A DNA stretch of 64,000 nucleotides, taken from positions 64,001 through 128,000 of the IMG/VR virus record IMGVR_UViG_2724679183_000002. The stretch is one strand, 5' to 3'. Of the stretch, positions 11,047 to 26,373 are shown piece after piece. The position numbers and the translations under genes are program-made. Origin of the DNA: a virus (lineage: Duplodnaviria > Caudoviricetes). The notes under the pieces were generated by a model. That model saw only the letters and a program-made list of their open reading frames with translations. It was not told the DNA's origin and did not search any database. The first letter of the stretch is position 1. The number at the start of each line of letters is the position of its first letter.

Positions 11047-11153
11047 ATCTAGAGTAAAATAAGTGAGAAGTTTACAGAGGCCTGCAATTACGTGGAGGAA
11101 ATTGCAGGCAATTTTTATAAAATCGTACTTTCATAAAGAATAGGAGAAAAGAG

Positions 11154-11468: not shown

Positions 11469-11530
11469 TTGCACTGCACTTTGAGAAACATCATAAAATC
11501 ACACTTTTGCAGGGAATAGGAGAGGTTATA

Positions 11531-11767: not shown

Positions 11768-11804
11768 ATAAAATCATTCTTTTATGAAGAGAGGGTTAAT
11801 CAAA

Positions 11805-12065
11805 ATGAAAAATGACTTTTTCGAAGAGCGAAACACAACAAATAAAAACGCGTTTGAAAATAATGAGGAAAATAACTCCGGTTGGTATGACAATGAAACA
11901 GATACATATTTTGAGATAGGCGATAAAGTTATCTGGTGGGGCGATGAAGAAGAAAGAATTGGTGTGATTAAATCCATCAAGGAAGAAACATTTGGGGTAT
12001 TGTGGTCGGATGAACAATATATTGAATATCCTGCGGATCACCAGGATGCAATTAAGAAGGCATAA
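11805..12065 (+). CDS. Small acidic SH3/KOW-like protein bounded by sites 11769 and 12068
   Basis: FEIGDKVIW...GVIK motif. Confidence 0.55.
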   Translation: MKNDFFEERNTTNKNAFENNEENNSGWYDNETDTYFEIGDKVIWWGDEEERIGVIKSIKEETFGVLWSDEQYIEYPADHQDAIKKA

Positions 12066-12088
12066 GATAAAACTACGATTTTAAGGAG

Positions 12089-12331
12089 ATGTATAATATG
12101 CCAAAGAAGTATAGCGACAGAGGCTTTGCAATTTATGAAGAATTAACTGACACTCAACAAACAACTGTTAAAGTTCAGAAAAGCTCTTTAGCTGAAGAAG
12201 AATGCGTATTTATTCTAGGAAATAACGATATAAGCAGTCACCCGGATAAGTATTTCCCACCTCATTTAAATGTGGAGCAAGCAAAGCGTGTTATTAAAGC
12301 ACTACAAGAGTTTGTAGGCGAAAACGAATAA
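12089..12331 (+). CDS. Hypothetical phage protein
   Basis: RGF...D......VQKSSLA...HLNVEQAK, a common phage small-protein pattern. Confidence 0.55.
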   Translation: MYNMPKKYSDRGFAIYEELTDTQQTTVKVQKSSLAEEECVFILGNNDISSHPDKYFPPHLNVEQAKRVIKALQEFVGENE

Positions 12332-12365
12332 ACAGAGTCTAAATATAACAACTCTTTTACAGGAC

Positions 12366-12788
12366 GTGAAGACAGGAGGTGCAGGCTTGGGGTTTAATAA
12401 AACGTTGATCAGTTGTGCTTATACATTGGCATTTTCAAGTTTGTCGTACGGTCTAATATTCGGACTTTATTTGTTTGTTTACTCTGGCTTTGTGCCAATT
12501 GCGTTAATCACTGTGGTTGTCATTGCTTTTTACGCATTAATCACTTACTTTGTATTTGCTCTTCCTTTGCAAATATGGCTGATAAGAAAGCGTAAAAAGT
12601 TTAGTTTAACTCATCTTTTTATTTATGCTGCAGTAGCCTTTTTAGCTGTGCTCTTGTTTTTGGGCATCGATAGCCCTCCTATTGATTTTACAGTTTTCAA
12701 GAGTTTAACTTATTACATAATGAGCATTGTTGCCGCGTTAATTTATTGGTTCTGGGACTCCATATTTTTAAAGGCTTATGACTCCTAG
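12366..12788 (+). CDS. yopD: UPF0715 membrane protein
   Basis: FALPLQIWL...YWFWDSIF; syntenic with SPbeta yopD. Confidence 0.65.
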   Translation: MKTGGAGLGFNKTLISCAYTLAFSSLSYGLIFGLYLFVYSGFVPIALITVVVIAFYALITYFVFALPLQIWLIRKRKKFSLTHLFIYAAVAFLAVLLFLGIDSPPIDFTVFKSLTYYIMSIVAALIYWFWDSIFLKAYDS

Positions 12789-12792
12789 ATCA

Positions 12793-13050
12793 CTAAACCA
12801 TGTACTTCACAACATTAACTACAAGCACAAAGGTAGCTGATCCAAACATTATATATCCAGGCCATTTATGATTGTTTATAAGTGATTCGACTCCTGCTAA
12901 AACCAAAAGTAGCACTAATAAAAATTGAAGAAACGACAATAGGAATTCACTCTGATTGAAAAAACTGTACACGCATAGGATCAGAGTTGCACAGGAAAGA
13001 ATTATTTTTGTTGCCTTAAGCAAAAAATCACTCCTTAAACACTTGAACAT
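12793..13050 (-). CDS. Small membrane protein
   Basis: Three hydrophobic segments; AAGGAG RBS before an internal TTG. Confidence 0.6.
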   Translation of the reverse strand: MFKCLRSDFLLKATKIILSCATLILCVYSFFNQSEFLLSFLQFLLVLLLVLAGVESLINNHKWPGYIMFGSATFVLVVNVVKYMV

Positions 13051-13135
13051 ATTGATGTTTACTGTATCATGTTTTTCTCTCTGTTTCGAGAGGCAATTGG
13101 ATCAAGAAGTATTTTACGGGAGGTAGGCGAGCGTT

Positions 13136-13360
13136 ATGATTAAGGTTTACACCATTGGACATGAGATACCCGAGAAAGTTAAATCGTATATCGATGAATG
13201 GAATTATTGGTTTTGGATTGCTGTTGCTAATACTCCTAAGAAAAATCGAGACGCCAAATTTTTAATTGATCAAATTCAACCTGATGAAGATAAAGAGAAT
13301 GTTTACAGAACTGATGATGGTATTGAGGTATATGTTAGCTATATGATGCCTGTGAAATAA
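13136..13360 (+). CDS. Hypothetical phage protein
   Basis: GGGAGG RBS, 74 aa. Confidence 0.55.
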   Translation: MIKVYTIGHEIPEKVKSYIDEWNYWFWIAVANTPKKNRDAKFLIDQIQPDEDKENVYRTDDGIEVYVSYMMPVK

Positions 13361-13380
13361 CCAAATAAAAAAGAGCATAA

Positions 13381-13563
13381 TTAAATGCTCTTCTTCATAC
13401 CACACCTACGACACTCACGCAAAAATACACCACTTTTCACTGAACTCTTGAACAGAGTGTAATCACAGTTGTCACAGCGACCATACTTAACATCAGGGTA
13501 CTCCTTATAATCGTAAACAATAGAAACATCGTACCCATTTGTCTCAAAATCTTTCTCTTCCAT
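13381..13563 (-). CDS. Small zinc-ribbon protein (YoyH-like)
   Basis: CDNC...CRRC. Confidence 0.6.
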   Translation of the reverse strand: MEEKDFETNGYDVSIVYDYKEYPDVKYGRCDNCDYTLFKSSVKSGVFLRECRRCGMKKSI

Positions 13564-13633
13564 TAAATTTCACCTACACAAAGTATTTAACACTACTATA
13601 ATACCAGACGATGTATATAAGGAGGGTTTTAAT

Positions 13634-13885
13634 TTGATTGGAATAGCATATTTCTTAATACTCTGGCTGGGTGTTGGCTTTCTAACAGGATTTAAGGCCT
13701 TATTCGTTGATCAAGTTTACGAGGAAGAATTTAAACAGGAACTTATTAACTCATTTTCACCAGGTATGGAGTAGAATATGATTGAACTATTCTTTAAAAA
13801 TAAAATAAATATCATGGTGTTTTACATACTGATTGGGTTCTTACCTTTAGCAATTAAAATCGTTGGGCTGCTGAAGAGGAGTTAG
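13634..13885 (+). pseudogene. yopE: yopE membrane protein with an in-frame TAG at 13772
   Basis: TTG start after AAGGAGG; read-through gives 83 codons MIGIAYFLILWLGVG...FVDQVYEEEFK resembling recalled YopE. Confidence 0.75.
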
Positions 13886-13887
13886 TT

Positions 13888-14103
13888 ATGCCGGTTATCG
13901 ATAGCTTTTTTGTTATTCAATTTGAAAATGATGATTACTTCAAGTCATTTAAATTAGACAATAGTGGTTATATAGTATCTCAGGGGCTTCATGGCGCTTC
14001 TAAGTTCACTACAATGTCAGAAGCTTTAGTGATCTCAAATGAGCTACATACACAGTTTAAAGCCACTTCTGCCATAAGACAAATTGAAGTTATTACTAGA
14101 TGA
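13888..14103 (+). CDS. yopF: YopF-like protein
   Basis: 71 aa, QFEN..YFKSFKLD.SGY, synteny. Confidence 0.7.
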   Translation: MPVIDSFFVIQFENDDYFKSFKLDNSGYIVSQGLHGASKFTTMSEALVISNELHTQFKATSAIRQIEVITR

Positions 14104-14114
14104 GGAGTGTTCAG

Positions 14115-14246
14115 GTGTATTGGATTGAATGGATAGAGAATGGGGAGAAGAAAAGTATCGTTGCTGAGGGTTGGGTTGAATGGGCTTCAATCCTGGAAGA
14201 CCTTTATCAGCAGCGATTTGAGTATGTAGAATGGAAACGGCTTTGA
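14115..14246 (+). CDS. yopG: YopG-like 43-aa protein (below the ORF-track cutoff)
   Basis: GAGGAG RBS; MYWIEWIENGEKKSIVAEGWVEWASILEDLYQQRFEYVEWKRL. Confidence 0.65.
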   Translation: MYWIEWIENGEKKSIVAEGWVEWASILEDLYQQRFEYVEWKRL

Positions 14247-14307
14247 ATAAAATAAGGTGTTTCAACTTTAAAAAATGGTTTTTGTTTTGCTGTTAGGCTA
14301 GAATTAA

Positions 14308-14931
14308 ATGAAAGGCGATGCTATCGTGAATCAAATAGTTTTAACATTAATAAATATATGGGATTGGTTTCTTTCCAATACAGGAAGTTTAGGAATGTTT
14401 GTATTAACAATTTTTATCGCATACTATTCTAAAAAATCTTCTAAGGCTAGCCTCGAGGCTGCAAAATTGGCTAAATATGAGTATGAAAGTAAAAAGGAAC
14501 CCGAAATAATAATCTATTTTGAGTTAAATGAGTTTAATCTGGATTTTAAAATGATGAACATTGGTTATGGTGTAGCGACAAATGTCACTGTCAATTTAGA
14601 AGAAAAGAGCGGCACTTTCCAAAAGAGCTATATGTACAAAATGAAAAATGGGATTTTTAACACCTGTATTCAGACATTTGCTCCAAATCAAGAAATCAAA
14701 GGGATTGCCGCTAGAGTTTCAGATATTAAAAATGATGATTCTGAATATCCTGTTTTTACTTGTAATATCACTTATTCCGATATGAATGGAAAACTATATA
14801 ATAAAAGGTATGACTTTGATTTGAATTATTTGGGGGGACTAGTTTGGACAGAAAAAGCAACCTTACATAATGTTGCTAATAGTCTAAAAGAAATTAAAGC
14901 AGAAATACAAAACCTTCATTCCAAGTCTTAA
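14308..14931 (+). CDS. Single-pass membrane protein of unknown function
   Basis: N-terminal TM helix; occupies the variable yopH/yopI slot. Confidence 0.6.
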   Translation: MKGDAIVNQIVLTLINIWDWFLSNTGSLGMFVLTIFIAYYSKKSSKASLEAAKLAKYEYESKKEPEIIIYFELNEFNLDFKMMNIGYGVATNVTVNLEEKSGTFQKSYMYKMKNGIFNTCIQTFAPNQEIKGIAARVSDIKNDDSEYPVFTCNITYSDMNGKLYNKRYDFDLNYLGGLVWTEKATLHNVANSLKEIKAEIQNLHSKS

Positions 14932-15012
14932 ATTATAATAAGGCTAACGAGAAACTTACGCTAAATTAATTTAAGGAAGATTAAATAAAAATAATTGTAT
15001 TAAGGAGAAGTT

Positions 15013-15429
15013 ATGAAACAAGTTTACCTACACATAAGATGGGAAGACCTTCACGGTGAAATTGGAGTGGATTCTTTTAATCTTTTGAGATTGATTTATT
15101 TGAATTTGAGCGAACAAGAATTAATAGAGGCAATTAAAGCATTGATATTTATTGAGCGGGAGGATATAGCTGCCAAATTTGATATTCACCTATCTGAGAA
15201 TAGCCCAGTTTTTAACGAACGGCAATATGTTGTTTACAAAGGAATTGCGGGAGAAATTAATTATAGAGACATGTTAATTTCATTGGCATCTACATTAGAA
15301 ATGAGTAATACATTAGACCATGTGCAGAATATCATGTCTTTAGCAAAATGTTTAAGAAGTTTTGATAGAGAGATTTTCGACAGATTTGCAAAGGATATCG
15401 CAGAAGAGGTGTATTATAGCCTTAAATAA
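15013..15429 (+). CDS. yopJ: YopJ-like protein
   Basis: 138 aa starting MKQVYLHIRWEDLHGEIG, directly upstream of aimR as in SPbeta. Confidence 0.75.
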   Translation: MKQVYLHIRWEDLHGEIGVDSFNLLRLIYLNLSEQELIEAIKALIFIEREDIAAKFDIHLSENSPVFNERQYVVYKGIAGEINYRDMLISLASTLEMSNTLDHVQNIMSLAKCLRSFDREIFDRFAKDIAEEVYYSLK

Positions 15430-15442
15430 GGTTATTTTTGGA

Positions 15443-15472
15443 GACGCAATGAGGCCTTTTCCTCATTGTGTC
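15443..15472 (+). terminator. Hairpin terminator upstream of aimR
   Basis: GACGCAATGAGG-cttt-CCTCATTGTGTC followed by TGTTT. Confidence 0.6.
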
Positions 15473-15500
15473 TGTTTAAAATACGAATTTTAATCATATA

Positions 15501-15554
15501 AAAATAAAAAATAAGTATAAAGTGATTGACTGAAAATTGTTTGTTCTGTATTAT
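15501..15554 (+). promoter_or_regulatory. aimR sigmaA promoter with an adjacent SPBRE-like repressor site
   Basis: AAAATAAAAAATAAGTATA at 15501-15519; TTGACT(15526)-N17-TATTAT(15549). Confidence 0.7.
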
Positions 15555-15595
15555 AAGAGTATAAACAACGGTACATATGAAAAGAGGGGAATCGA

Positions 15596-16756
15596 ATGGA
15601 GCTTATAAGAATAGCTATGCGAAAAGATTTGGAAAATGATAAATCTCTCATGAGTAAATGGGCTACGGTAGCTGGTCTTAAAAACCCAAACCCCCTTTAC
15701 GATTTCTTAAATCATGATGGGAAAACATTTAATGAATTCTCTTCTCTTGTTAATATTGTGAAAAGCCAGTACCCTGAACGCGAATACGAGCTAATGAAAG
15801 ACTATTGTGAGCATCTTGATCCTAATACTAAAGCAGCAAGAAGCGCATTAGAGTATGCAGATGCGAATAAATACTATGAAATTGAAGACAAATTGATTAG
15901 TTCAATGGTTGAAAGTAGCAATAATAAAAGCAAAGAATATGGAAAGGTATACGAGATACATAGAGAACTAACCCAAGAAAATATTAATGAGTTTGAGGCG
16001 ACAAAAAGACTCGGAAGATTGAATATTAAAACAGCCGAAATGAACAACTTTGCGCGCATTTCTTTGCTATACCATTATCTAGAGTCAGGTAACTTTGCTC
16101 CAATGGATAGATTGATAAAACAAGTTGACCTTTCTGAAGTTAAAGAAAATCTTTTTGTTAAAAACCTATATCAGACCCGAGTTTTTGTTTTACAATCGAA
16201 CATTAAACTGAATGAGAATAAATTAAGTGAATGCAGAGAGTATGCAAAGAAAGCAATTGACAGTACCAATATCCAGAGGTTTCAAGTCTTTAGCTATCTT
16301 ACTGCTGGTAATTCATTATTATTTACAGACTACCACAAAGCTAAAGACTATTTTCTAAAGGGGCTAAGTGCTTCAACTGACAGTAACATCTATCAAAGAA
16401 TATTGAGACAAGCTCTCTGTTTTTTAAACAACGTTTGGGAAAAAGAAAACGATTTTCTAAACACCGATTCTAAGGAGATAATAGATTTACAGGAATACGC
16501 ACATATGCTTATAAATAAAAAAAATACAGAAAGAGCAAAAAAAATTCTGGATCAATTAGATCAATTGGAACATAACGATAATGAGTTGGCCATGCATTAT
16601 TACTTAAAAGGAAAACTCAAAATGGACAAGCAGTGCTTTTATTCATCAATTGAGTACTTTAAAAAATCAAACGATAAGTTTCTTATCAGATTACCGTTAA
16701 TAATGTTAAAACAACTGGGAGAGAATGAAAAGCTTTTAAATCTCTTGGCGTTATAA
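15596..16756 (+). CDS. aimR: Arbitrium receptor AimR (HTH + TPR)
   Basis: 386 aa starting MELIRIAMRKDLENDKSLMSKWATVAGLKNPNPLYDFLNHDGK, close to recalled SPbeta AimR; followed by aimP. Confidence 0.97.
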   Translation: MELIRIAMRKDLENDKSLMSKWATVAGLKNPNPLYDFLNHDGKTFNEFSSLVNIVKSQYPEREYELMKDYCEHLDPNTKAARSALEYADANKYYEIEDKLISSMVESSNNKSKEYGKVYEIHRELTQENINEFEATKRLGRLNIKTAEMNNFARISLLYHYLESGNFAPMDRLIKQVDLSEVKENLFVKNLYQTRVFVLQSNIKLNENKLSECREYAKKAIDSTNIQRFQVFSYLTAGNSLLFTDYHKAKDYFLKGLSASTDSNIYQRILRQALCFLNNVWEKENDFLNTDSKEIIDLQEYAHMLINKKNTERAKKILDQLDQLEHNDNELAMHYYLKGKLKMDKQCFYSSIEYFKKSNDKFLIRLPLIMLKQLGENEKLLNLLAL

Positions 16757-16776
16757 ACTTGAAAGGGGGTGAGAAT

Positions 16777-16902
16777 ATGAAAAAAGTTGTTATGGCAGCA
16801 ATTATTTTAGGAGCACTTTTTGTCTCGTTTGCAGGAGTAAACACAGCCAGTCAACAAGCTTCTGGTAAATACGAAATAGCAGGAATGCCTCGGGGCGCAT
16901 AA
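16777..16902 (+). CDS. aimP: Arbitrium pre-pro-peptide AimP, mature peptide GMPRGA (missed by the ORF track)
   Basis: MKKVVMAAIILGALFVSFAGVNTASQQASGKYEIAGMPRGA*; signal peptide and AAAGGGGGTGA RBS. Confidence 0.97.
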   Translation: MKKVVMAAIILGALFVSFAGVNTASQQASGKYEIAGMPRGA

Positions 16903-16907
16903 AGAAC

Positions 16908-17003
16908 TTGACACATAATTGGGAAAATTATATTATTTACTTAATTAAATTAATTTGTGAAATCAAAAAGACGTTTGGCTCATTGAGCTAGGCGTCTTTT
17001 GTG
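16908..17003 (+). ncRNA. Short promoter-terminator unit at the aimX position
   Basis: TTGACA-N17-TATTAT, then hairpin AAAAGACGTTTGGCTC/GAGCTAGGCGTCTTTT; no ORF seen. Confidence 0.45.
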
Positions 17004-17254
17004 CTTTAAAGTTCACCACGAGATTAGTTCAATTTCGCATAACTAAGGGAAAATCGTCTAATTAAGGTAACTGGTGTACTTACATAACTCTAAAACCACT
17101 ATCAATAATTAAATACTGAAACAGCACATTCGAAAAAAGATTAAAAAGAATGTGCTATTTGTCGTTAAAACATCTTTACTTATTACGTTCAATGCATTAA
17201 AATGAATTTAGAAATCAAAAAGAAAAAATAAGTATTGTTTTAGGGGGAGGAATT

Positions 17255-17455
17255 ATGTCAGCTATAAAGTATTTACAAAGCAGCATGACATTACATAAAA
17301 CCATATATCAGAATAAGTTTGAAAATATTGCTCGTAACGATTTTTTTGCAAACGAAAAGAATTCAGAAAAAGAAAAAATAAAGAGAGGAGAATTCATCAG
17401 GAAGGAAATGACTAAAGGCTATTTGAAATTATTGAGTGCGTGTAAGGAGGGCTAG
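17255..17455 (+). CDS. yopM: Repression-operon protein SroA
   Basis: 66 aa, first gene after aimP, GGGGAGG RBS. Confidence 0.7.
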   Translation: MSAIKYLQSSMTLHKTIYQNKFENIARNDFFANEKNSEKEKIKRGEFIRKEMTKGYLKLLSACKEG

Positions 17456-17460
17456 TACCC

Positions 17461-17793
17461 ATGCAAGTAGTGGACTTAAATGCTACTAAAAAGAAAGTAA
17501 ACAGTACTAAGAGCATTGACGAAAACTTTACTAATATGGTTGTCGAAACATACCTGAATAGCATATTGGACATAAGAAAAATCATACTTAATGCAAAGAC
17601 TCAAAATGACCTATTTAATGCCAAAATGGAAGTGAAAGCGTTGCTCCAGGATATAGATCGTATTCTCAGAGGTGGTGACGTGCTGTCTAGAAACACCGAA
17701 TGCAATCCCCATTATGCTTCGCTAATAACTTTTATGAAACACTTAAAAGCACATATCTCAATTGAATTTGAGCAGTTTATTTATAAACCGTAG
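17461..17793 (+). CDS. yopN: SroB/YopN (lysogeny-promoting, MazEF-interacting family)
   Basis: Synteny and size. Confidence 0.6.
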   Translation: MQVVDLNATKKKVNSTKSIDENFTNMVVETYLNSILDIRKIILNAKTQNDLFNAKMEVKALLQDIDRILRGGDVLSRNTECNPHYASLITFMKHLKAHISIEFEQFIYKP

Positions 17794-17848
17794 CTCTAAA
17801 GGCGGGCATTTATCCTTATTATACATATGGCTTTGTAAGGAGGATTCT

Positions 17849-18070
17849 ATGTCAAAGCGAATTAAAAAGCTGATGGAAGAACGCAACATCACAATAGAAC
17901 AGATTGCAAAAGAAACAATGATTAATATTGAAAAACTCAAGAAAATCATTAATGAACCGCATGAGGGAGATGTAACTTCCGTTAAGCTGATCGCTTTGGT
18001 GCTGGATGTCTCCATTGATGATCTAATTTATGATAACGATTTTAAACGGGAAGGAGGAAAGGAACAATGA
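17849..18070 (+). CDS. yopO: Xre HTH regulator SroC
   Basis: AAGGAGG RBS, ATG 17849; IKKLMEERNITIEQIAKET...IALVLDVSIDDL. Confidence 0.8.
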   Translation: MSKRIKKLMEERNITIEQIAKETMINIEKLKKIINEPHEGDVTSVKLIALVLDVSIDDLIYDNDFKREGGKEQ

Positions 18071-19149
18071 GTGCAGAAATTAAACCTATTAAGGAATATA
18101 AAGTGTTTGATGACATTATGTCGTTTCTCTATAGCAAGGACATAGCCAGTAGCTCTGGGAACTCAAAGTATCAAACCAAGGACGCGCCTATGGTTTCTAA
18201 TACACGAAAAAATTATACAGGTGATATAAAGCAATTTTTCAGGATCTTAAAAGAAAAAGAAATCGAATATTTGTCTGAAAGTGATTTAACGATTACTAAA
18301 AGCGATCTGACAGGGTTTATTAAGTATCTTCAAAGTAAAGGGCTTGTAAACAAAACCATTAAAAGAAAATTAGCATCCCTAAAAATGCTTTATAAGTACC
18401 TTAGCTACGATTACAAAGAATTTATTGACTTAAGTGTTTTTGATTCTGTTGGAAAGTTGAAAACAGTTGAAAAAAACTGGGGAAGAACTAATAAAGAAGA
18501 AGCCGATCTTATCGCAGAAGACATGTATATTAACGAACGCCAAAAACCATTACTCAAAAAGCTTTGTGTGAAGGCAGCAGCAAGAACTTCTTTTCGTCTT
18601 AGTGCGTTATTAAGAATTAGATGGAGTGATTTTGAAATTGATTCAGCGACCGAGCATTATGTGGTTTCTGTTTTAGACAAGGGATCCAAAGTGGTGTCAA
18701 CGGGAATCAATAAATCTTTTTATGAAGAGCTTTTAGAACTAAAGAATAAAAATACAGTCGACACAGATTATGTTTTTAAAGGGCTTTCTGAGCAATCACT
18801 TAGACATTCTTTAAAACGTTCTAAAGAAAGGCTGGGTATTCCGCCAGAGAGGGACTTGAAATTTCACTCTTTTAAGGGAGTGGGTATTGACTATGTTTAT
18901 GAACACACTGGGCACGACATATTAGCTGCAAGAGAACAAGGAAATCATAGCAGTGTATCAACCACAGAACGCTATATGAGCAAAAGAAATGATATATCTA
19001 AAACTGCTGGTGTTATTATGGACGAGGAAATTGAAATAAACAAGCTTTATGAAGCTAAGAAAGAAGATTTTGTTTCTTTTTTTGAAAAAGCAGAGCCGGC
19101 TATACTGAATAAATTCATTAAATTCCTATCGGAATCTAATGGGTTCTAA
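18067..19149 (+). CDS. yopP: Tyrosine recombinase-family protein SroD
   Basis: SAM-like N-domain (TIKRKLASLK) and catalytic motifs TSFR, DKG, HSFK, GNHSSVSTTERY. Confidence 0.88.
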   Translation: MSAEIKPIKEYKVFDDIMSFLYSKDIASSSGNSKYQTKDAPMVSNTRKNYTGDIKQFFRILKEKEIEYLSESDLTITKSDLTGFIKYLQSKGLVNKTIKRKLASLKMLYKYLSYDYKEFIDLSVFDSVGKLKTVEKNWGRTNKEEADLIAEDMYINERQKPLLKKLCVKAAARTSFRLSALLRIRWSDFEIDSATEHYVVSVLDKGSKVVSTGINKSFYEELLELKNKNTVDTDYVFKGLSEQSLRHSLKRSKERLGIPPERDLKFHSFKGVGIDYVYEHTGHDILAAREQGNHSSVSTTERYMSKRNDISKTAGVIMDEEIEINKLYEAKKEDFVSFFEKAEPAILNKFIKFLSESNGF

Positions 19150-19227
19150 TTTTAATGATTATTATTTATTTTTCTCTTGATAATAAAGTTGCCCTTTGGT
19201 AACTTTATTTTAGCGACATAATATGAG

Positions 19228-20631
19228 GTGATACAAATAATGACGGTGATATTTGACCAAGCTGCAAATGAGAAATTGCTCAGCGAAATGAGAGATGTGT
19301 TCTCTAGAAAAAAACATATTCGCTCTTTTATAAATGATGTCCATACAGTTATGGCTGAGTTTAAAATATCTCCTGGCTCAACACAAAAAATAATTAATGA
19401 ATTAGAAAAACCTGAGTTAGACCTTTCGAAAGAATATATGTACTTCTTAGCTAAATGTCTATTCAAGATTCTTGAATCAGAGAGGTTTAATCCTGCTAAT
19501 TATTTTACAGAAGCAGATATGCAAGAAATTGAAACGCTTTGGGAAGGCGAAGTAGAAGAAGAAATTAAATTTCCTTACACTTTTAAAAATGCCGTTAAAT
19601 ACTCAGAAAGTAACTTAACGTTCCAAATTACGGCTGAAGATCTTTATCGCCTATTTGAAAACAAACTTCTTCATTATAATCCAAATGCACAAAGAACAAA
19701 TAAAACCAAGAAGCTTGAAGGAACTGATATTGAAATACCTGTACCAGAGTTAAACAAAAAATCGGTGGAAGAAATAAAAGAGCTTTTTAAAGACGGCAAG
19801 TTGATTAGCTCAATGTTTACTTTTAATGCACGTGTAGGAAGTGCAGATGAAGGAATTGAGTTAATATATGACGAAGAAAGTATGTCTTTAACTATAACAG
19901 AAGGTACGATATTGGATGTATTGGATGGGTATCATAGGCTTATAGGGATAACTGCTGCAATTAGGCAACATCCTGAGCTCAAGCACTTACTAAAACGTGT
20001 GTTTAAAGTGGATATTTACAACTACACTCAAAAGCAGGCGAGAGAGCATTTTGGACAACAGAACACTATAAACCCTGTGAAAAAGTCCAAGGTTGCTGAG
20101 ATGAGTCAACATCACTTTTCAAATAAGATTGTTAAGTTTATTCAAGACAACAGTCTTATTGGTGATTACATTAAGACCAACGGTGATTGGATTAACCGGG
20201 GCCAAAACCAGTTAATTACCTTTTCCGATTTCAAGAAAGCAATTGAACGTAGCTATTACAAAAAGGATTTTAGTAATCAAGCGGATATCTTGAAAACAGG
20301 AAGGTATTTAAGTGCATTTTTTGATGCAATAGCCAATATTTATATTGATGAATTTTTAGGAAGTATTGCAGATGAACGTAAGCGGTCTCTTGTAAACAGC
20401 AATTTGTTCTTTAACGGGTATGTTCTCTTAGCGAAACGATTCCAGGAGTTAAATGTTTCAATTGATGACTTAGAAAATAAAGTAAAAGAAGTACTAAAAC
20501 CAATTGATTTTGGAAAAGACAACGAGCTGTGGAAGGAACTTGGGATTATTGATAATAACGGTAATCCGAAAGCTCCTCAAAAGATATGTGACTTCTTCAG
20601 AGATATAGAGATAGAACAGCAATTTAATTAG
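19228..20631 (+). CDS. yopQ: SroE/YopQ (DndB/ParB-like fold)
   Basis: YNPNAQR and VLDGYHR motifs; synteny. Confidence 0.8.
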   Translation: MIQIMTVIFDQAANEKLLSEMRDVFSRKKHIRSFINDVHTVMAEFKISPGSTQKIINELEKPELDLSKEYMYFLAKCLFKILESERFNPANYFTEADMQEIETLWEGEVEEEIKFPYTFKNAVKYSESNLTFQITAEDLYRLFENKLLHYNPNAQRTNKTKKLEGTDIEIPVPELNKKSVEEIKELFKDGKLISSMFTFNARVGSADEGIELIYDEESMSLTITEGTILDVLDGYHRLIGITAAIRQHPELKHLLKRVFKVDIYNYTQKQAREHFGQQNTINPVKKSKVAEMSQHHFSNKIVKFIQDNSLIGDYIKTNGDWINRGQNQLITFSDFKKAIERSYYKKDFSNQADILKTGRYLSAFFDAIANIYIDEFLGSIADERKRSLVNSNLFFNGYVLLAKRFQELNVSIDDLENKVKEVLKPIDFGKDNELWKELGIIDNNGNPKAPQKICDFFRDIEIEQQFN

Positions 20632-20639
20632 CTTAGGAG

Positions 20640-21629
20640 ATGTTTGATGCAATGTTCAATAGTGATATTAAGGAAAAGTATTTGGATTCTGTTACAGAAG
20701 CAGTAGCCCATCAATTAAGGCCTCTATTCTCAAAATCAGAGATAACAGAAAATCTTTATAAAAAAGATATTTATGACTTCACTTCAGTGCAGATTTTAGA
20801 ATTAATACGATCATTCGACCAAACAACAATTGGGAGTGTAAAAAGAACATTATCATTATTGTCAACGTATATCGATTGGGCAACATCTTATAATTTGAGC
20901 AAAGGTGCTGTTAACTTAGCGAGAACGATATCGAACGATGAGCTTTATGAGTGCCTAGGTGATAAAAAATTATACATCTCATTTAGTGAACTGGAAGACA
21001 TGCAAGACAAATTACTCAATTATCAATCGAAAGCAGTGCTCAGATGTTTATTTGAGGGTATATCAGGCATGGCTCATTCTGAACTACTTAGTCTTTCAAG
21101 GCAACAAATAGAAGAAGCAATGCTAAACGGCAACGTACTGACACTACATGACATAAAGAATGGAGATCGAAAGTTAAAAGTGAGTAGCGACTGTCTTATT
21201 ATTGCTTTAAATGCTTCGAAAGAAAGTACGTACCAATTAAAAAATGGAAGAGCCGAAGGACGAGCAAAAGAAGTTTCTTTAGTGGACAATGACTTTGTAA
21301 TTAAAACTAAAAAAACCAGAGGTAAAAATGAAGGTCAAGCAGGTAGACATATAATAACGAACTTAATAACAGATATCTCTGAGTTCTTTAAAATAAACTT
21401 CCTGACACCTAATACAATTGTAAGATCAGGACATCTTTATCGTGCATATCAGCTTTATAAAGAACGAGGTGTTATTGATAACGCTGTTAGATACCAAATC
21501 ATTGATGAATTTAATTTGAACGTAAATAGAGTCAGGGCTGTTTACAGCATGAAAGATTACATTAATGAAGAAGAGATAAAAAAGCTCTATGCAGAAGAAT
21601 TAGGCTTGAAAGATGAAGAATTAATTTAA
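20640..21629 (+). CDS. yopR: Master repressor MrpR/SroF (recombinase fold, degenerate catalytic motifs)
   Basis: MFNSDIKEKYL, LFEGISG, LTPNTIVRSG; synteny. Confidence 0.85.
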   Translation: MFDAMFNSDIKEKYLDSVTEAVAHQLRPLFSKSEITENLYKKDIYDFTSVQILELIRSFDQTTIGSVKRTLSLLSTYIDWATSYNLSKGAVNLARTISNDELYECLGDKKLYISFSELEDMQDKLLNYQSKAVLRCLFEGISGMAHSELLSLSRQQIEEAMLNGNVLTLHDIKNGDRKLKVSSDCLIIALNASKESTYQLKNGRAEGRAKEVSLVDNDFVIKTKKTRGKNEGQAGRHIITNLITDISEFFKINFLTPNTIVRSGHLYRAYQLYKERGVIDNAVRYQIIDEFNLNVNRVRAVYSMKDYINEEEIKKLYAEELGLKDEELI

Positions 21630-21641
21630 ATAAGTATTCGC

Positions 21642-21672
21642 CACCCAGCAAAAATAAACTGGGTGTTTTTTC
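21642..21672 (+). terminator. Terminator of the sro operon
   Basis: CACCCAG...CTGGGTG followed by TTTTTT. Confidence 0.75.
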
Positions 21673-21855
21673 TCGCTTTAAAAACAAAATATAAGCACAT
21701 TAATAATAGTCGTTTAAAAAATTTTGATATTCGACAAAAATAGACATAATAAGTCAAAATAAGTTCTTTCCACCACTAGCAACATGTAGTAAAATAGTTG
21801 TGTAAACCATACGGTTTACTCAGGAGGAGACCAAGACATTTGTCTTAGTCGAAAT

Positions 21856-22080
21856 TCAATGCCTTTCAACCTTGAATTCATAGAGGTCTTCCACATTACA
21901 ATCTAATGCATCAGCGATTCTTATTGCTGTTCTAATTGTCATCTCGACTTTTTTCATCCGGTTATAATCGCTTAGTTGTTGCTTCTTTATTCCAGTTATT
22001 TCAGCAAGTTCATTGATTGTAATGTCTTTCTTTCTACAAAGTTCAGGTATCAAGCATTGCCCGATCTCAACTTTAATCAT
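21856..22080 (-). CDS. yopS: Xre HTH regulator
   Basis: 74 aa, ITINELAEITGIKKQQLSDY; reverse orientation as in SPbeta. Confidence 0.85.
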   Translation of the reverse strand: MIKVEIGQCLIPELCRKKDITINELAEITGIKKQQLSDYNRMKKVEMTIRTAIRIADALDCNVEDLYEFKVERH

Positions 22081-22202
22081 TATCGGACATCCTCCTGCTA
22101 GTTCTGTTATGGAAAGACATAATACATATCATACCATACGATGACTTCAAATAACCACTAGCGTTACACTCACAATAAATGTATAATGTTAATAAACAAA
22201 AC

Positions 22203-22216
22203 AGAACGCTTGTTCC
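22203..22216 (+). promoter_or_regulatory. LexA/DinR (SOS) box downstream of a TATAAT -10 element, upstream of yopT
   Basis: AGAAC-GCTT-GTTCC fits the Bacillus GAAC-N4-GTTC consensus. Confidence 0.7.
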
Positions 22217-22256
22217 CTTGTAAGGTTGTCAAAGAGAAAAAACATAGTATAGGAGA

Positions 22257-22478
22257 ATGAGGATGGCAGGTTATTTGAACAATGTATCATTAAATCTTGA
22301 AATAGTACTTAAAAACACAGCAAAAAATGAAGAGGTATCTCAAACTATTGCCGAAAGACTTTGTGAAAAATTAATGGTTACCAGGGAAGTAACTTTTTTG
22401 CAAGCAGATGGCACTGTTGAAAAATTTAAATTGAATGACATTGATTATGAGATATCTAATACTGAAGAAATACTTTAA
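22257..22478 (+). CDS. yopT: YopT-like protein
   Basis: MAGYLNNVSLNLEIVLKN; synteny. Confidence 0.75.
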   Translation: MRMAGYLNNVSLNLEIVLKNTAKNEEVSQTIAERLCEKLMVTREVTFLQADGTVEKFKLNDIDYEISNTEEIL

Positions 22479-22532
22479 ATAAAATAAATAGGAAGACTCC
22501 ATTGAACCACAGCACGAATTATTGCAGCGTAG

Positions 22533-22751
22533 TTGGAGCTTGTAGGTGAACACGTGAAATTATTTGTTGATCTTCAGGATTACAACACCATTAATCTCAA
22601 ACTAACTAAAAAGGTTTTAACATCTGAACAGTACCAATTCCTTTTGAACTTTAATGGAAAACAAGTAGACATTACGGTTTCAATAACGCCAGAAAATCTG
22701 GTGAAAATAAGAGATCATATCAATGAAATAATATTTAAATTTGCCGAATAA
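22533..22751 (+). CDS. YopU-like protein
   Basis: Synteny. Confidence 0.55.
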   Translation: MELVGEHVKLFVDLQDYNTINLKLTKKVLTSEQYQFLLNFNGKQVDITVSITPENLVKIRDHINEIIFKFAE

Positions 22752-22752
22752 A

Positions 22753-22795
22753 AATCAAATTCGATCATTTGGAAAAAATATGATCGAATTTGATT
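22753..22795. repeat. Perfect 16-bp inverted repeat overlapping a TTGACA -35 element
   Basis: AATCAAATTCGATCAT-N11-ATGATCGAATTTGATT. Confidence 0.85.
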
Positions 22796-22869
22796 GACAA
22801 AAACAATTTTGTGGGTTACCTTATAGTTAAATATAAAAAATAAGCATAAGGAGGATCGTAGATAAAGCG

Positions 22870-23049
22870 ATGTTGCTTGATGAAAAGCTGAATAAATTAA
22901 AAGGCGCATATGACACACTCCTCATTCATAAGAGTAAAAATGAAATGAGAAGAGTTGTAGGATTGTTTCACTCAATAATTGATTATGCGTATGAAGGCAT
23001 GTACATAGCTGAGGCACAAATCGACCAAGAAGGAGAGGCAAATGATTAG
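22870..23049 (+). CDS. YopV-like 59-aa protein (below the ORF-track cutoff)
   Basis: MLLDEKLNKLKGAYD...IIDYAYEGMYIAE; AAGGAGG upstream. Confidence 0.55.
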   Translation: MLLDEKLNKLKGAYDTLLIHKSKNEMRRVVGLFHSIIDYAYEGMYIAEAQIDQEGEAND

Positions 23050-23284
23050 TATAAAAAGTCCTAAGATTAATACAATTACACTAACTGACTCTAACAAAGC
23101 AAGTTTAGTTAGAAGAATTATAGAAAAAGAGAAACTCGGTTATGAATGCACTCATCCAATAACAGAGAAGTTCTTTGAGTTTGTTGCTACCGGTTCTGCT
23201 AAAAGGGGTAGCAAATACCGAAGGGAATACATAGGGTATACAAAATTTTTCACCAAAATGAAACTTATTAAAAATAAAATATAA
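23042..23284 (+). CDS. Hypothetical phage protein
   Basis: AGGAGAGG RBS. Confidence 0.55.
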   Translation: MISIKSPKINTITLTDSNKASLVRRIIEKEKLGYECTHPITEKFFEFVATGSAKRGSKYRREYIGYTKFFTKMKLIKNKI

Positions 23285-23354
23285 GTATGTAAAATGTAAG
23301 TTTTATCAAGATTGAAATAGGCCGGCAGGCGATAGTGAGGAGTGAAGTATTATT

Positions 23355-23591
23355 ATGAAGAATTTATGTTGTGAAACGTGTGGGTTGGATACCCATGAAA
23401 ATACAACGCCTATCTTTGAAAAGCCTTTAAGATTTGCTTTTCGATCAGATATCAAGCAGTTAGAACAAAATACTGACGACCATAGAAAACAAGAAAATAT
23501 CTGTTTAGACTGTTTCACTGCTGAATTGCAACAGGTTAGCAAGGATTGTAAAACACGGTGCAAATTTAAATCAAAGGAGAGCGGACAATGA
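23355..23591 (+). CDS. Small Cys-rich phage protein
   Basis: CETC...CLDC. Confidence 0.55.
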   Translation: MKNLCCETCGLDTHENTTPIFEKPLRFAFRSDIKQLEQNTDDHRKQENICLDCFTAELQQVSKDCKTRCKFKSKESGQ

Positions 23592-24256
23592 ATCTACAAA
23601 AAATGTTCGAAATGCAAAAGGTGCTGGATGATCGGATCATCAAAGAAAAGGGGCTTGAGGGGCGGGACTTGCTGCCGAACCTCATTCTTGCTCTACAGGT
23701 GGAGCTGGCCGAGTGTGCGAATGAATGGCGCGGCTTTAAGCATTGGAGTGATGACCGGGAGCCGCGTACGAAAATAGAGCATTTTTGTCCAACATGTGAT
23801 GGCACTGGCGATGAAAATCATGATATTAATTTGCAATATCTCGAAGAAGGGCATGCAGTTGAACCATATTCCGAATGCCAAGACTGCAACGGCTCTGGGA
23901 AGTTAGGTGAAACAAATCCTCTACTTGAGGAATACGTTGACTGCCTGCACTTTATTTTGAGTATTGGGAATCACATCAATTATAAAATCGTCTCTACAAA
24001 AGAATTACAAGCGTTCTTTTGTGAAATTAATCTGACGGAACAATTCGCCTCATTATTTGAGGAAATCGTATATATGGCACAAGCAACGAGAGGTCATTCT
24101 CCAGCGGAACAAGCGTTAGCAAAGTATAGGTATGTATCTCTATTTCAAATATTCATAGGCTTGGGAGTAATGCTCGATTTTACCACTGAACAAATCGAAG
24201 CCGCCTACATGGAGAAAAACGCCGTCAATCATCAGCGGCAGCAGGAGGGGTATTGA
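23588..24256 (+). CDS. Dimeric (all-alpha) dUTPase with an inserted CxxCxGxG zinc-finger
   Basis: ELAECANEWRGFKHW, LLEEYVDCLHF, KNAVNHQRQ..GY; insert CPTCDGTG...CQDCNGSG. Confidence 0.88.
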   Translation: MNLQKMFEMQKVLDDRIIKEKGLEGRDLLPNLILALQVELAECANEWRGFKHWSDDREPRTKIEHFCPTCDGTGDENHDINLQYLEEGHAVEPYSECQDCNGSGKLGETNPLLEEYVDCLHFILSIGNHINYKIVSTKELQAFFCEINLTEQFASLFEEIVYMAQATRGHSPAEQALAKYRYVSLFQIFIGLGVMLDFTTEQIEAAYMEKNAVNHQRQQEGY

Positions 24257-24639
24257 TGGAGAAATTTGATCTTAAATTAATCGGCGGACAGCTGGTAATT
24301 GATATGGGACAAACAGCAGATGACAGATTCAAGCATATAGGTTATAACGGCCAGCCTGCTATTTATGATTTTGATGAAATCTGTGTACCAATTATCGGCA
24401 CAGTGGAGTTAAGCGATGAGCAAATAAAGAAGATTGGGCTTGCTTATACAAACGGTGATAAATGTGATTACTGTGAAGAATACACGGACAAGGTGCGGCC
24501 CTCTCCTTTTATGGCCGATGCGGGTGCTTCAATGTGTAAAGAGTGTTGGGACGGAACAAAAGAAGAATATGCCACATCCACCGATGAGCATATTGGGGAT
24601 TTTGAGGATTACCCACACTGGAAGGAGGGCGCGGAATGA
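24253..24639 (+). CDS. Hypothetical zinc-binding protein
   Basis: CDYC...CKEC. Confidence 0.6.
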   Translation: MMEKFDLKLIGGQLVIDMGQTADDRFKHIGYNGQPAIYDFDEICVPIIGTVELSDEQIKKIGLAYTNGDKCDYCEEYTDKVRPSPFMADAGASMCKECWDGTKEEYATSTDEHIGDFEDYPHWKEGAE

Positions 24640-24833
24640 GAAGTCCAACAGAGAAACAATTGGGATTAATTCGAAACATGGAGCAATATATAAGTGCAAG
24701 ATTCACCGGTAATACAATAAGAGAAGCAAGCGAATTTATTACAAATCATATGGATGAATACCAAGAAGAGAAAGAAATGGCCGATGAATCAAAGGTTTTA
24801 TATGATGATGTTTACTATGAAGAAAGCTGGTAA
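24636..24833 (+). CDS. Hypothetical phage protein
   Basis: PTEKQL...EASEFI motif. Confidence 0.55.
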   Translation: MRSPTEKQLGLIRNMEQYISARFTGNTIREASEFITNHMDEYQEEKEMADESKVLYDDVYYEESW

Positions 24834-24951
24834 CCTTGCCTGAAGCATAGAGAATCTAAATAAAAGATGCATTTTAAAGAGATACCTTGTTTGGAGGAAT
24901 AAAACCATATAAACTTTAGTAGAGACAATTAAATACAAGGGAGAAAAATAT

Positions 24952-26373
24952 ATGAATAAAAAAGCCATAAAAAGACCAAAAGTGTTTATATCATATTGTT
25001 GGACTTCTGAACAACATGAAGAATGGGTTTTAGATCTAGCAATACGATTGTCTGAGGGGGATGGCATAGAGGTTATACTTGATAAGTGGGATTTAAAAGA
25101 AGGACAAGATAAATATGCATTCATGGAGAGTATGGTTACTTCTAAAGAAATAGATAGGGTATTAATCATTTGTGATTCTGGATATCAAAATAAAGCTGAT
25201 AATAGGACAGGTGGAGTAGGGGATGAAACTCAAATAATTACCCCGAATGTTTATTCGGATACAAAACAAGAAAAGTTTATTCCTATTATTGCAGAACGAG
25301 ATGAAAAAGGAAATGCTTTCATTCCTGCTTACGTTAAGAATAGAATTTATATTGAACTATCTAATGAAGAAACTTTTGAAGAAAATTATGAAAAATTGAT
25401 TAGAAATATAATGAAAGCACCAAAGTATAAAAAACCACCTCTGGGTGAACTACCATTATATTTATTTGATGAAGAAATAAACCACTTTAAAACTAAAAAC
25501 ATTATTAGAAAAATGAGAAACGCTCTTGAAAAAAATCCTTCAAGGATTAGTTTCCTTTCAGAAGAATTTATTGAAGCATTTGTTGAATCTTTAAAAGGGT
25601 TACAAATTCAAAATGAAAAAATTGAAAATAATCAAATCGACGATTTAATTAAAGAAGGAATTGATAAGTCATTGCCATTAAAAGATGACTTTATAAATTA
25701 TTTAAAAGTACTAATTGAGGCAGACAAGGTTGATTCGGATGCTTTGGCAGAGCTCTTTGAAAGAATATATGTTTTCACAGAAATACAAAAAGGAATGGAT
25801 CATTGTCATCCGGAACAATTTGATCACTTTAAGTTTATACTTCATGAAATCGTTATATACACCTTCACTCTACTGTTCAAGTATAAAATGTACAGCATTA
25901 TTGCTGACCTATTAGATATGGAATACAATTTGTCATTTAGGGGAAGTTCTGAAAACTTAACTGCATTCAGATTTTATATAACATCTCTAGATAAAAGAAA
26001 CAAGAAGCTTAAATTGAATAGGGTAAGTTATCATTCTGAATTATTGATGCAAAGATCGAACGACTTAAGAGACGAATTGATAGTAGCTGATGTCTTGCTT
26101 TTTCATTTACTAAGAATGAGAAGTGTAAACTTTGATTGGTTTCCAATCACATATATCCATAATCTTTTTCATTTAAACATTAAGTTTTTAAGTAAATTAA
26201 AGTCTGAAAAGTTTGCCCGAAAAAATTTAAGCGTATTTGGTGTTGACACTATTGAAGAATTAAAAAATAAGATTAAGAACTTTGGAAGGCCTGTATCATT
26301 TCAATCAACTTTTGACAGTGCTCCTATTCCAAGTCAATTTATAAAACCAGAAGATATTGCAACCAAGCCATAA
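24952..26373 (+). CDS. SEFIR/TIR-domain protein, putative anti-phage defence
   Basis: KVFISYCW...WVLDLA.RL..DGIEVILDKWDLKEGQD..FME, GGVGDE, KFIPII; own terminator at 26382-26413. Confidence 0.85.
   Translation: MNKKAIKRPKVFISYCWTSEQHEEWVLDLAIRLSEGDGIEVILDKWDLKEGQDKYAFMESMVTSKEIDRVLIICDSGYQNKADNRTGGVGDETQIITPNVYSDTKQEKFIPIIAERDEKGNAFIPAYVKNRIYIELSNEETFEENYEKLIRNIMKAPKYKKPPLGELPLYLFDEEINHFKTKNIIRKMRNALEKNPSRISFLSEEFIEAFVESLKGLQIQNEKIENNQIDDLIKEGIDKSLPLKDDFINYLKVLIEADKVDSDALAELFERIYVFTEIQKGMDHCHPEQFDHFKFILHEIVIYTFTLLFKYKMYSIIADLLDMEYNLSFRGSSENLTAFRFYITSLDKRNKKLKLNRVSYHSELLMQRSNDLRDELIVADVLLFHLLRMRSVNFDWFPITYIHNLFHLNIKFLSKLKSEKFARKNLSVFGVDTIEELKNKIKNFGRPVSFQSTFDSAPIPSQFIKPEDIATKP

Follow-up and report, generated by a model that had tools for sequence, protein, structure and literature searches.

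Xer systems, as described in PMC5357621, operate at a single chromosomal site that adjoins the recombinase gene and depend on FtsK. In the difH site of Helicobacter, a centre of 6-10 base pairs (bp) separates the arms AGTTATGAAAA and AAAAGTTTGA, and the difSL site of the streptococcal recombinase XerS has the arms TTTCCGAAAA and TTTTCTTGAAA; at both sites, the arms meet the centre as GAAAA and TTTTC (PMC5357621). In the phage SPbeta, a protein of the recombinase fold class, MrpR (also known as YopR or SroF), serves as the master repressor and, according to PMC10516654 and bioRxiv 2025.11.27.690993, occupies a long, asymmetric box in monomeric form. Here, we analyze YopP (SroD), which is encoded in the same operon as this repressor, in a 64,000-base stretch of viral DNA (hereafter, the window) that constitutes the middle part (bases 64001-128000) of the 140,932-base IMG/VR provirus IMGVR_UViG_2724679183_000002 (G000 in the coordinates below). 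Unlike SroF, YopP keeps the full catalytic set of a tyrosine recombinase, with Lys at one position where Arg is usual, and we tentatively read it as an active recombinase-type protein whose best candidate target is a palindrome, TRAAA-N6-TTTYA, that is scattered over the phage genome.

The gene itself is already known. The naming of the sro genes and the roles of SroF and SroE are covered by PMC10769878 and bioRxiv 2025.11.27.690993, an "XerC superfamily integrase domain" of YopP is mentioned in PMC8612738 (Brady et al. 2021), and the YopP homologues of SPbeta and phi3T are annotated either as carrying an XerC-superfamily integrase domain or as "site-specific integrase". SroD has been published as part of a repressor module, next to SroF, the textbook case of a recombinase turned repressor. 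In the literature that we searched, to which Brady et al. 2023 did not belong, there was no account of SroD activity or DNA targets. The abstract of the latter work is said to call SroD an auxiliary repressor, so that the claim of the sequence-only reading that no substrate of YopP is known needs a qualifier. The present analysis adds counts of the catalytic residues over the whole family and the finding that Lys and Arg alternate at one of these positions.

Identity and active site of YopP/SroD

The yopP/sroD gene occupies positions 18067..19149 (+ strand) of the window and encodes a protein of 360 amino acids (aa). This protein is 62.6% identical to SPbeta YopP at 100% query coverage and 34% identical to the phi3T protein at 92% coverage; full-length similarity, together with the location of the gene in an aimR-aimP-sroABCDEF block with sroE and sroF directly downstream, places it in the SroD/YopP orthologous group. 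At the DNA level, megablast similarity to SPbeta is reached by the yopS stretch only (~83%), which, combined with the level of protein identity, indicates that the provirus is a diverged SPbeta-like phage and that its gene is a YopP/SroD orthologue. Pfam searches detected Phage_int_SAM_1 (PF02899, 6.1e-10) and Phage_integrase (PF00589, 1.4e-9), both above the curated cut-offs, and the PHROGs match is "integrase" (phrog_1, 5.6e-25). The protein consists of a SAM-like core-binding domain, a tyrosine-recombinase catalytic domain and a conserved tail of ~55 aa past the catalytic Tyr, and both the Pfam domains and the AlphaFold2 fold correspond to the two-domain clamp of the tyrosine recombinase superfamily.

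An exhaustive HMMER search yielded 665 representatives at E <=0.001, including 319 at <=1e-10. The family profile was built from 148 sequences, namely, the query, 144 of the 150 listed hits among these 665, and three sequences from another search; all counts out of 148 given below refer to this profile. As a single sequence, YopP gave only chance-level matches in a phmmer search of the PDB; the profile reached XerA (5.7e-23), another archaeal Xer protein, XerD (5.7e-18), IntI4 and XerH. The AlphaFold2 model, which was built on the 148-sequence alignment (mean pLDDT 92.1, pTM 0.82), has as its closest PDB folds the XerH-difH complexes 5jk0 and 5jjv (E ~1e-9, TM 0.58-0.63), followed by XerA and many Cre-loxP entries, with lambda Int and IntI4 also matched over the full length. 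Judged by sequence and modelled fold, YopP is a Xer/Cre-fold tyrosine recombinase of an SPbeta-like provirus.

The sequence-only reading had described a near-complete tyrosine-recombinase active site in YopP, with Lys in place of the usual Arg in the HxxR box, and this description holds in each of its particulars. The translation contains TSFR at residues 174-177, DKG at 204-206, HSFK at 267-270 and GNHSSVSTTERY at 292-303. The profile alignment to XerA and XerD equates TSxR with Arg-I, DKGxK with the Lys hairpin, HSxK/R with HxxR, and GNHSxxxTTxxxY with the stretch from His-III to the Tyr; because the motifs align in this manner, the catalytic correspondences count as tested rather than guessed. 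The coordinates of the catalytic codons, all on the + strand, were computed from the start of the YopP open reading frame (ORF). R177, which is Arg-I (18595..18597), is present in all 148 sequences and aligns with the Arg of the "TGLRVSE"-type motif of XerD and XerA, and K205, the beta-hairpin Lys (18679..18681), is present in 147/148 and aligns with the Lys of "GKGNKE" in XerD. The HxxR box spans H267 to K270 (18865..18876) and aligns with "HVLRH" of XerD and XerA, with H267 kept in 148/148, and the segment from H294, which is His-III, to Y303, the nucleophile (18946..18975), aligns with "GHSDLSTTQ-IY" of XerD, the two residues being conserved in 143/148 and 147/148 sequences, respectively.

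Thus, with the Tyr, Arg-I, the beta-hairpin Lys, His-II and His/Trp-III all in place and kept in 143-148 of the 148 sequences, the only deviation from the residue set that defines the superfamily is at Arg-II of the HxxR box, where K270 is a conservative departure rather than a loss. Position 270 is occupied by K in 82 and by R in 66 of the 148 sequences and, accordingly, is basic in every representative; because K and R alternate across the family, the Lys reads as one of two family-wide states and not as a lesion of this copy. We repeated the count on genes read from the loci themselves, which comprised 72 of the 74 IMG/VR loci with a match, SPbeta, phi3T, Geobacillus phage E3 and Lactococcus phage AM5, plus the window protein (n=77). 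The set R-K-H-R-H-Y was found in 48 and R-K-H-K-H-Y in 24; the remaining five seemed to lack the Tyr through a one-column shift in the alignment, and the Tyr is present in all of them. The R-K-H-(R/K)-H-Y set also occurs in AM5, a virulent-type phage, and in E3. Because the catalytic positions are retained so widely, the active site of YopP is, on the evidence of the alignment, under family-wide selection, unlike that of its neighbour YopR/MrpR.

YopP and MrpR/YopR/SroF share a fold class and an operon, and binding at multiple sites across the phage genome is reported or proposed for both. Table 3 of Kohm et al. (PMC10516654) gives V137/S138, E144, K169, N254, V257/R258, V291 and Y304 as the residues at the catalytic positions of MrpR, in which recombinase function is lost, and the Y304F change is described there as destabilising, with Tyr and Lys kept although the protein is not a recombinase. 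With 75% identity to MrpR of SPbeta, the YopR protein of the window carries I/S, E, K, N, V/R, V and Y at the aligned positions, so it is devoid of Arg-I, His-II and His-III and retains the Lys and the Tyr. These residues, as well as the published findings (PMC10516654), agree with the view of YopR/MrpR as a catalytically dead repressor, whereas the statement that YopR lacks recognisable equivalents of the YopP residues applies to Arg-I and the two His only, as the Lys and the Tyr are kept. In an hhalign comparison, the YopP family showed no significant similarity to the window YopR (probability 1.5).

The TRAAA-N6-TTTYA palindrome

The window contains 28 copies of TRAAA-N6-TTTYA compared to 3.05 expected, a number that was reached in none of 100 shuffles, and the whole provirus contains 40 copies at a spacing of 6 compared to 2-8 at each other spacing between 0 and 14; neither the reversed arrangement nor direct repeats gave a peak in the provirus at any spacing scanned. 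In an unbiased scan for 5-mer dyads, TAAAA-N6-TTTTA ranked first in the provirus, in its relatives G001-G003, in SPbeta and phi3T, where the palindrome totals are 36 and 34, respectively, and in Geobacillus virus E3. An outer symmetry, TCT...AGA, extends the element to an ~11-6-11 site (TCTAAA-TAAAA-N6-TTTTA-TnnAGA). The 6-bp centre differs from site to site and is retained across phages at orthologous sites. By a crude ORF set, which assigns 90% of the genome to coding sequence, 32 of the 40 provirus sites (23 of the 28 in the window) are intergenic, and most are located a few bases past a stop codon and 0-30 bases ahead of the next start. The sites cluster in the early arm: the 64 kb of the window contain 28 of them, and the 64 kb with which the provirus starts contain 9.

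The window palindromes, to which no strand is assigned, span 5570..63453, with none within 17255-21629, and start at positions 5570, 6678, 6997, 8268, 11118, 11769, 12068, 15477, 23290, 24861, 26433, 27199, 27651, 29249, 31912, 33109, 33310, 36339, 48151, 50654, 51597, 51655, 52467, 54116, 54472, 56083, 63065 and 63438. The nearest site upstream of the sro region, TAAAATACGAATTTTA (15477..15492), lies ahead of aimR, and an orthologous site is found at the same place in SPbeta; the nearest one downstream is TAAAATGTAAGTTTTA (23290..23305). The flanks of the palindrome differ between lineages, with GTAAAA-N6-TTTTAC in the record G034 (12 of 64 sites) and at the few AM5 sites, and ATAAAA-N6-TTTTAT in SPbeta-like phages and E3. 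The record G041 contains a second enriched dyad, ATTTA-N5-TAAAT (21 vs 2.9).

Several candidate roles of the palindrome were considered and rejected. A hairpin in RNA or DNA is not compatible with the fixed arms: at the variable half-site positions of the 28 window sites, the pairs are A/T in 17, G/C in 1, G/T in 5 and A/C in 5, so that 10 of the 28 sites pair G/T or A/C and there is no co-variation, for which reason a protein pair on duplex DNA fits better. The palindrome is not the box of the master repressor because the SroF operator-like repeat at the aimR and yopM promoters is a different, asymmetric AAAAATAAAAAATAAGTATA-like sequence, present in 8 copies on one strand. The host ComK AT-box and the CodY box do not match in spacing and order, given that only spacing 6 is enriched. 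A promoter for the phage RNA polymerase YonO fits poorly because YonO is reported to start one late operon (PMC5467207) and most palindromes are located in the early arm.

The arms of the palindrome, TRAAA and TTTYA around 6 bp, are near to the GAAAA and TTTTC with which those of difH and difSL meet their centres (PMC5357621), a likeness by analogy that is suggestive only. XerH, the best fold match of YopP, resembles it also in size (~350-360 aa) and in that one recombinase acts on one nearly symmetric site (PMC5357621), as would be the case for YopP if it reads the palindrome. In contrast to the Xer arrangement, there are here ~40 sites with differing centres, none of them adjoining the gene, and no single adjacent dif-like site of a dimer resolvase was found in the window or at 25 loci where YopP is encoded apart from sroE and sroF. 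YopP would work like a Xer protein but is not classed as one.

Cre, which is among the top fold matches, shares with YopP its origin, being a tyrosine recombinase carried by a headful-packaging phage. P1 has one loxP of 13-8-13 geometry, and heterospecific lox and FRT sites are used for cassette exchange; by the same token, palindromes with different centres would not be expected to cross-react. The likeness to integrons is more superficial. IntI4 is both a profile and a fold match of YopP, and short genes alternate with imperfect palindromes. However, attC sites are longer, folded single strands, whereas the elements described here are 16-28 bp of fixed sequence with half-sites that do not co-vary; no attI or Pc arrangement is present, and yopP lies in mid-genome instead of heading an array. 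Hence YopP is not an integron integrase, which is defined by attC-type sites and by its place at the head of the array.

We then compared the distribution of the palindrome with that of YopP, as the sequence-only reading had proposed. Among the 74 IMG/VR loci with YopP relatives, TAAAA-N6-TTTTA was counted in 50 records, near-duplicates having been dropped, and a record was considered palindrome-rich if it contained at least 10 copies and at least three times the number of the reversed-pattern control. Of the 50 YopP-carrying contigs, 42 are palindrome-rich; among the 8 others, 6 are 23-57% complete and two (G041 and G044) are near complete. The unrelated Firmicute phages SPO1, K, A511, phi105 and AR9 are not enriched (0, 4, 0, 0 and 9 copies compared to 0, 4, 1, 0 and 10 in the controls), and none of these five contains a match to the YopP family, although the same profile did match in the provirus. 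Palindrome richness and YopP thus coincide in 42/50 carriers against 0/5 unrelated phages, and G044 is a near-complete carrier in which an intact YopP is accompanied by no enrichment. Overall, the association between YopP and the palindrome is real but confounded by descent.

Possible functions of YopP

From sequence and model, we infer catalytic activity, binding as a dimer and the palindrome as the YopP site. In this reconstruction, YopP would still be a sequence-specific DNA binder able to cleave and rejoin DNA, probably acting as a pair at a site of two-fold symmetry. Its expression in SPbeta-like phages would be from the sro lysogeny operon, where it reportedly helps in repression, and its best candidate target would be TRAAA-N6-TTTYA between small early genes. 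The choice of this target is favoured by the geometry of inverted arms around a 6-bp centre, the cognate sites of tyrosine recombinases having such arms around 6-8 bp, and by the fact that YopP is the sole PF00589 match in 10 of the 32 records examined, namely, SPbeta and phi3T, both of which are palindrome-rich, and eight others. Binding of the palindrome by YopP is possible, about to the same degree as the reading as a whole, and catalysis there is more doubtful.

A number of observations weigh against this assignment. The carriers all belong to one lineage of phages of 90-220 kb, so co-occurrence does not provide independent support, and other lineage-specific genes travel with YopP as well: of the 30 records checked, 25 have a DndB (SroE-like) and 23 a MrpR_C_cat (SroF-like) match, and any lineage-specific protein, a small helix-turn-helix (HTH) protein included, could read the palindrome. 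The gene for a YonO-like polymerase often adjoins yopP. The near-complete G044 (164 kb, 90% complete) encodes an intact R-K-H-R-H-Y YopP and has 5 sites compared to 4 in the control, with no other strong dyad detected in a scan of this genome; G041 has 12 compared to 5, and in Lactococcus phage AM5 the signal is weak (10 vs 2.4 at other spacings). No palindrome is present within or beside the sro operon, where yopP is 2.6 kb and 4.1 kb away from the nearest sites, and none was found beside yopP at the 25 unlinked loci. The location of the palindromes 0-30 nucleotides ahead of ribosome-binding sites would equally suit a site of transcriptional or translational control. In the protein itself, the acidic residue three positions past Arg-I is replaced by Ala (A in 95 and E in 27 of the 148 sequences), and Lys at Arg-II may lower activity, as in mutants of other recombinases. 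A module consisting of a recombinase gene and an adjacent site was looked for and not found, either here or at the 25 unlinked loci.

SroD is of interest for its full catalytic set over 148 relatives, the presence of relatives in phages that do not look temperate, and the lack of any other intact tyrosine recombinase in SPbeta and phi3T. Should it bind and cut the palindrome, SPbeta would have a second site-specific recombination system, which would bear on accessory-gene exchange in large temperate phages and would provide a set of recombination sites that are orthogonal by nature. Otherwise, the palindrome would call for another reader, and the retention of the active site by SroD for another reason.

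The alternative that fares best, although we find it doubtful, is that SroD/YopP is solely a DNA-binding auxiliary repressor, in which the conserved active-site residues would contribute to DNA contact or folding without any strand exchange, and palindrome binding is optional. The gene belongs to the sro repressor operon, where it is flanked by the HTH gene and by sroE-sroF, and one of three data sets shows it transcribed in SPbeta lysogens (bioRxiv 2021.11.22.469490); MrpR, too, keeps the Tyr and the Lys without recombinase function (PMC10516654), and many palindromes in the early region would suit a silencing roadblock. However, a protein that only binds DNA should have drifted in the way of SroF, and yet five catalytic positions are nearly invariant and the sixth is always basic. 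Furthermore, the catalytic set is kept in virulent-looking or terminal-repeat phages (AM5, G038, G039, G041 and G050), which need no lysogeny repressor.

The genomic context of YopP across the family also argues against such a restricted role. The sro trio (yopP, sroE and sroF) is found together in Geobacillus virus E3 and at 49 of the 74 related loci; at the other 25, neither sroE nor sroF is encoded within 5 kb of the YopP gene, and in the records checked, this pair is tens of kb away. The flanking ORFs were scanned at 11 of these 25 loci and at the AM5 locus. A RecD2-like helicase is encoded next to YopP at six loci (L062, L079, L115, L126, L133 and L004, which is AM5), a primase-like gene is found at L126, and an HTH_36/DnaD-like gene at L098, L102 and L079. 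At most of the scanned loci, there is a divergent gene encoding a protein of 850-930 aa, one copy of which matches the Pfam family RdRP, as expected of a YonO-like RNA polymerase. Settings of this general kind, outside the SPbeta-like phages, were also noted for L077, L106, L127 and L130. Phage AM5 shares with the provirus YopP and common packaging and replication genes, and a tblastn search with the provirus proteins did not find SroE or SroF in it. The link to arbitrium that the sequence-only reading had drawn is, therefore, not general, replication genes taking the place of sroE-sroF at a third of the loci. At L062, a fusion of GIY-YIG and Phage_integrase domains is encoded directly downstream of the YopP-family gene.

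It is less likely that YopP is a Xer/Cre-like housekeeping recombinase, which would resolve multimers or circularise the genome at some other site or at a doubled palindrome, with the palindromes perhaps belonging to another protein. Cre circularises the P1 genome after injection, and the nearest relatives of YopP in sequence and fold are Cre and the single-recombinase Xer enzymes XerA, XerD and XerH. The family is found only in large phage genomes (90-220 kb in most cases). Temperate and virulent-type phages have it in common, as they do genes for replication and packaging, and outside the SPbeta-like phages it adjoins replication genes. The packaging of the latter, which is described as P1-like headful packaging from concatemers with circular permutation (bioRxiv 2021.11.22.469490), would also fit. 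This explanation is at odds with the lack of a single conserved site adjoining the gene, and the distribution of the palindromes is uneven for an aid to circularisation, given the count of 28 in the window compared to 9 in the first 64 kb.

Still further down the scale, and quite unlikely in our estimate, is a many-site, single-enzyme system in SPbeta-like large phages, in which ~40 Xer-like palindromes, addressed by their own centres, would all be read by YopP/SroD. Because only sites with identical centres would complete an exchange, no genes of a single genome would ever be deleted by YopP, which could instead recombine orthologous sites of the phage and a related prophage, swapping the genes between them, or join two copies of a site in the terminal redundancy and so circularise the genome without the host RecA; the repressor role would then correspond to the DNA-bound, non-reacting state of YopP.

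The original proposal, that YopP moves or swaps gene cassettes at the palindromes, tying the turnover of accessory genes to the arbitrium/sro operon, was compared with patterns of homology between phages. Within 30 bp of a palindrome, there are 4-8 of the 64-96 block ends against five relatives, compared to 1.1-1.7 for random positions and 7-11 for random gene junctions. One-sided homology at palindromes was not enriched in comparisons of this genome with its relatives (p 0.11-0.64), and gaps with a palindrome held a block end in 12/32 cases compared to 43/190 for other gaps (p = 0.08). The surroundings of the palindromes are nevertheless variable, favouring exchange at these junctions: both flanks are homologous to G001 at 3/27 palindrome junctions compared to 60/118 others (p = 1.6e-4), with a like pattern for G002, G003 and SPbeta and a non-significant one for phi3T. 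This variability could reflect small accessory genes carrying the motif, and such genes vary whatever their flanks.

There is no block of at least 97% identity between the provirus and any relative compared, so sharp edges cannot be scored in this genome. Where sharp edges are present, 12 of 70 block ends at >=95% identity are within 12 bp of a palindrome compared to 5.0 under an intergenic-gap null, the ordered pairs compared not being independent. For phi3T vs SPbeta, this applies to 5 of 22 sharp edges compared to 1.6 (reached in 19 of 1000 draws), and in the reverse direction to 3 of 22 compared to 1.4. Crossovers in the three phi3Ts x SPbeta hybrids obtained in the laboratory map to segments, 40 bp to 18 kb long, in which the two parents are identical (among them 104630-106035 and 114170-119066 in Hyb2, MT366947, and 31969-50205 in Hyb1), and several edges of these segments are 2-8 bp from a palindrome. 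However, one of the junctions is restricted to a 40-bp interval that contains no palindrome, and the remaining ones are in parental identity of 1.4-18 kb, as expected from homologous recombination, to which the hybrids were ascribed in bioRxiv 2020.05.06.055103. In favour of the proposal, the site-specific 6-bp centres would permit exchange between genomes and not deletion within one. A word of 16-28 bp that is conserved at the ends of genes can also steer exchange by homology or microhomology, with no need of a site-specific enzyme. With block ends no commoner at palindromes than at gene junctions and the sro link not general, cassette shuffling by YopP is not supported here, and we consider it very unlikely.

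The sro block and other recombinases of the provirus

By Pfam naming and synteny, the block that contains yopP follows the order aimR, aimP, yopM-N-O-P-Q-R and, in the opposite orientation, yopS, as in SPbeta and phi3T. The arbitrium receptor gene aimR (15596..16756, +; Pfam AimR, 1.6e-98) is at the position of yopK in SPbeta and is followed, at the position of yopL/aimP, by an AimP-like small ORF (16777..16902, +) whose 41-aa translation ends with GMPRGA, the arbitrium peptide of SPbeta. Protein identity to SPbeta in the remainder of the sro region is only ~60-75%. Two small ORFs with no family assigned by Pfam separate the AimP-like ORF from a yopO/sroC-like Xre-type HTH gene (17849..18070, +; Pfam HTH_26/HTH_3, synteny with SPbeta yopO), the start codon of which was picked by eye and the end of which overlaps the yopP start by 4 bases.

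Downstream of yopP, the yopQ/sroE orthologue encodes a DndB/ParB-like protein (19228..20631, +; Pfam DndB 1.1e-13, phrog_5732 3.2e-145, and synteny); its true start is probably an ATG 12 bases inside the called ORF. Next is the yopR/mrpR/sroF orthologue (20640..21629, +; Pfam MrpR_N_CB and MrpR_C_cat, 2.5e-110), encoding the recombinase-fold master repressor without the catalytic set. In the SPBc2 record (L001, AF020713, 8590-9567), residue 136 of MrpR is Glu, the published heat-sensitive c2 change, and the window YopR has the wild-type Gly there. A yopS-like HTH gene (21856..22080, -; Pfam HTH_26, 6.2e-15), with ~83% DNA identity to SPbeta yopS, diverges from the operon.

At G000:137447-139141, beyond the window and close to the right end of the provirus, a 565-aa frame on the + strand (Pfam Recombinase, 9.3e-20) encodes an SprA-like large serine recombinase, which by its similarity is likely the integrase of this provirus, so that YopP is not needed in that capacity; integration by an SprA-type enzyme had been anticipated, and the location is as in the SprA arrangement. 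A second, more canonical tyrosine recombinase is encoded by a 338-aa frame in the late region (G000:~34990-36000, -; PF00589, 2.6e-23), also outside the window, and a Pfam search found no counterpart in SPbeta or phi3T. A TRAAA-N6-TTTYA site is located just beyond the end of this gene (G000:34970-34985).

The asymmetric AAAAATAAAAAATAAGTATA-like repeat is present in 8 copies, all on the + strand, including those upstream of aimR and of the yopM-like gene. The 10-base cores start at window positions 15508, 17225, 31587, 36827, 36859 and 51403, and, outside the window, at G000:63014 and 129726. At the same places, SPbeta has AAAAAATATGTATA, and the repeat looks like this phage's version of the SPBRE/MrpR operator. 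A perfect 16-bp palindrome upstream of SPbeta yopM (TTGTAATGCATTACAA; L001 5166-5181, that is, SPbeta 77856-77871) is partly kept in the window as TTCAATGCATTAAAA (~17190-17210).

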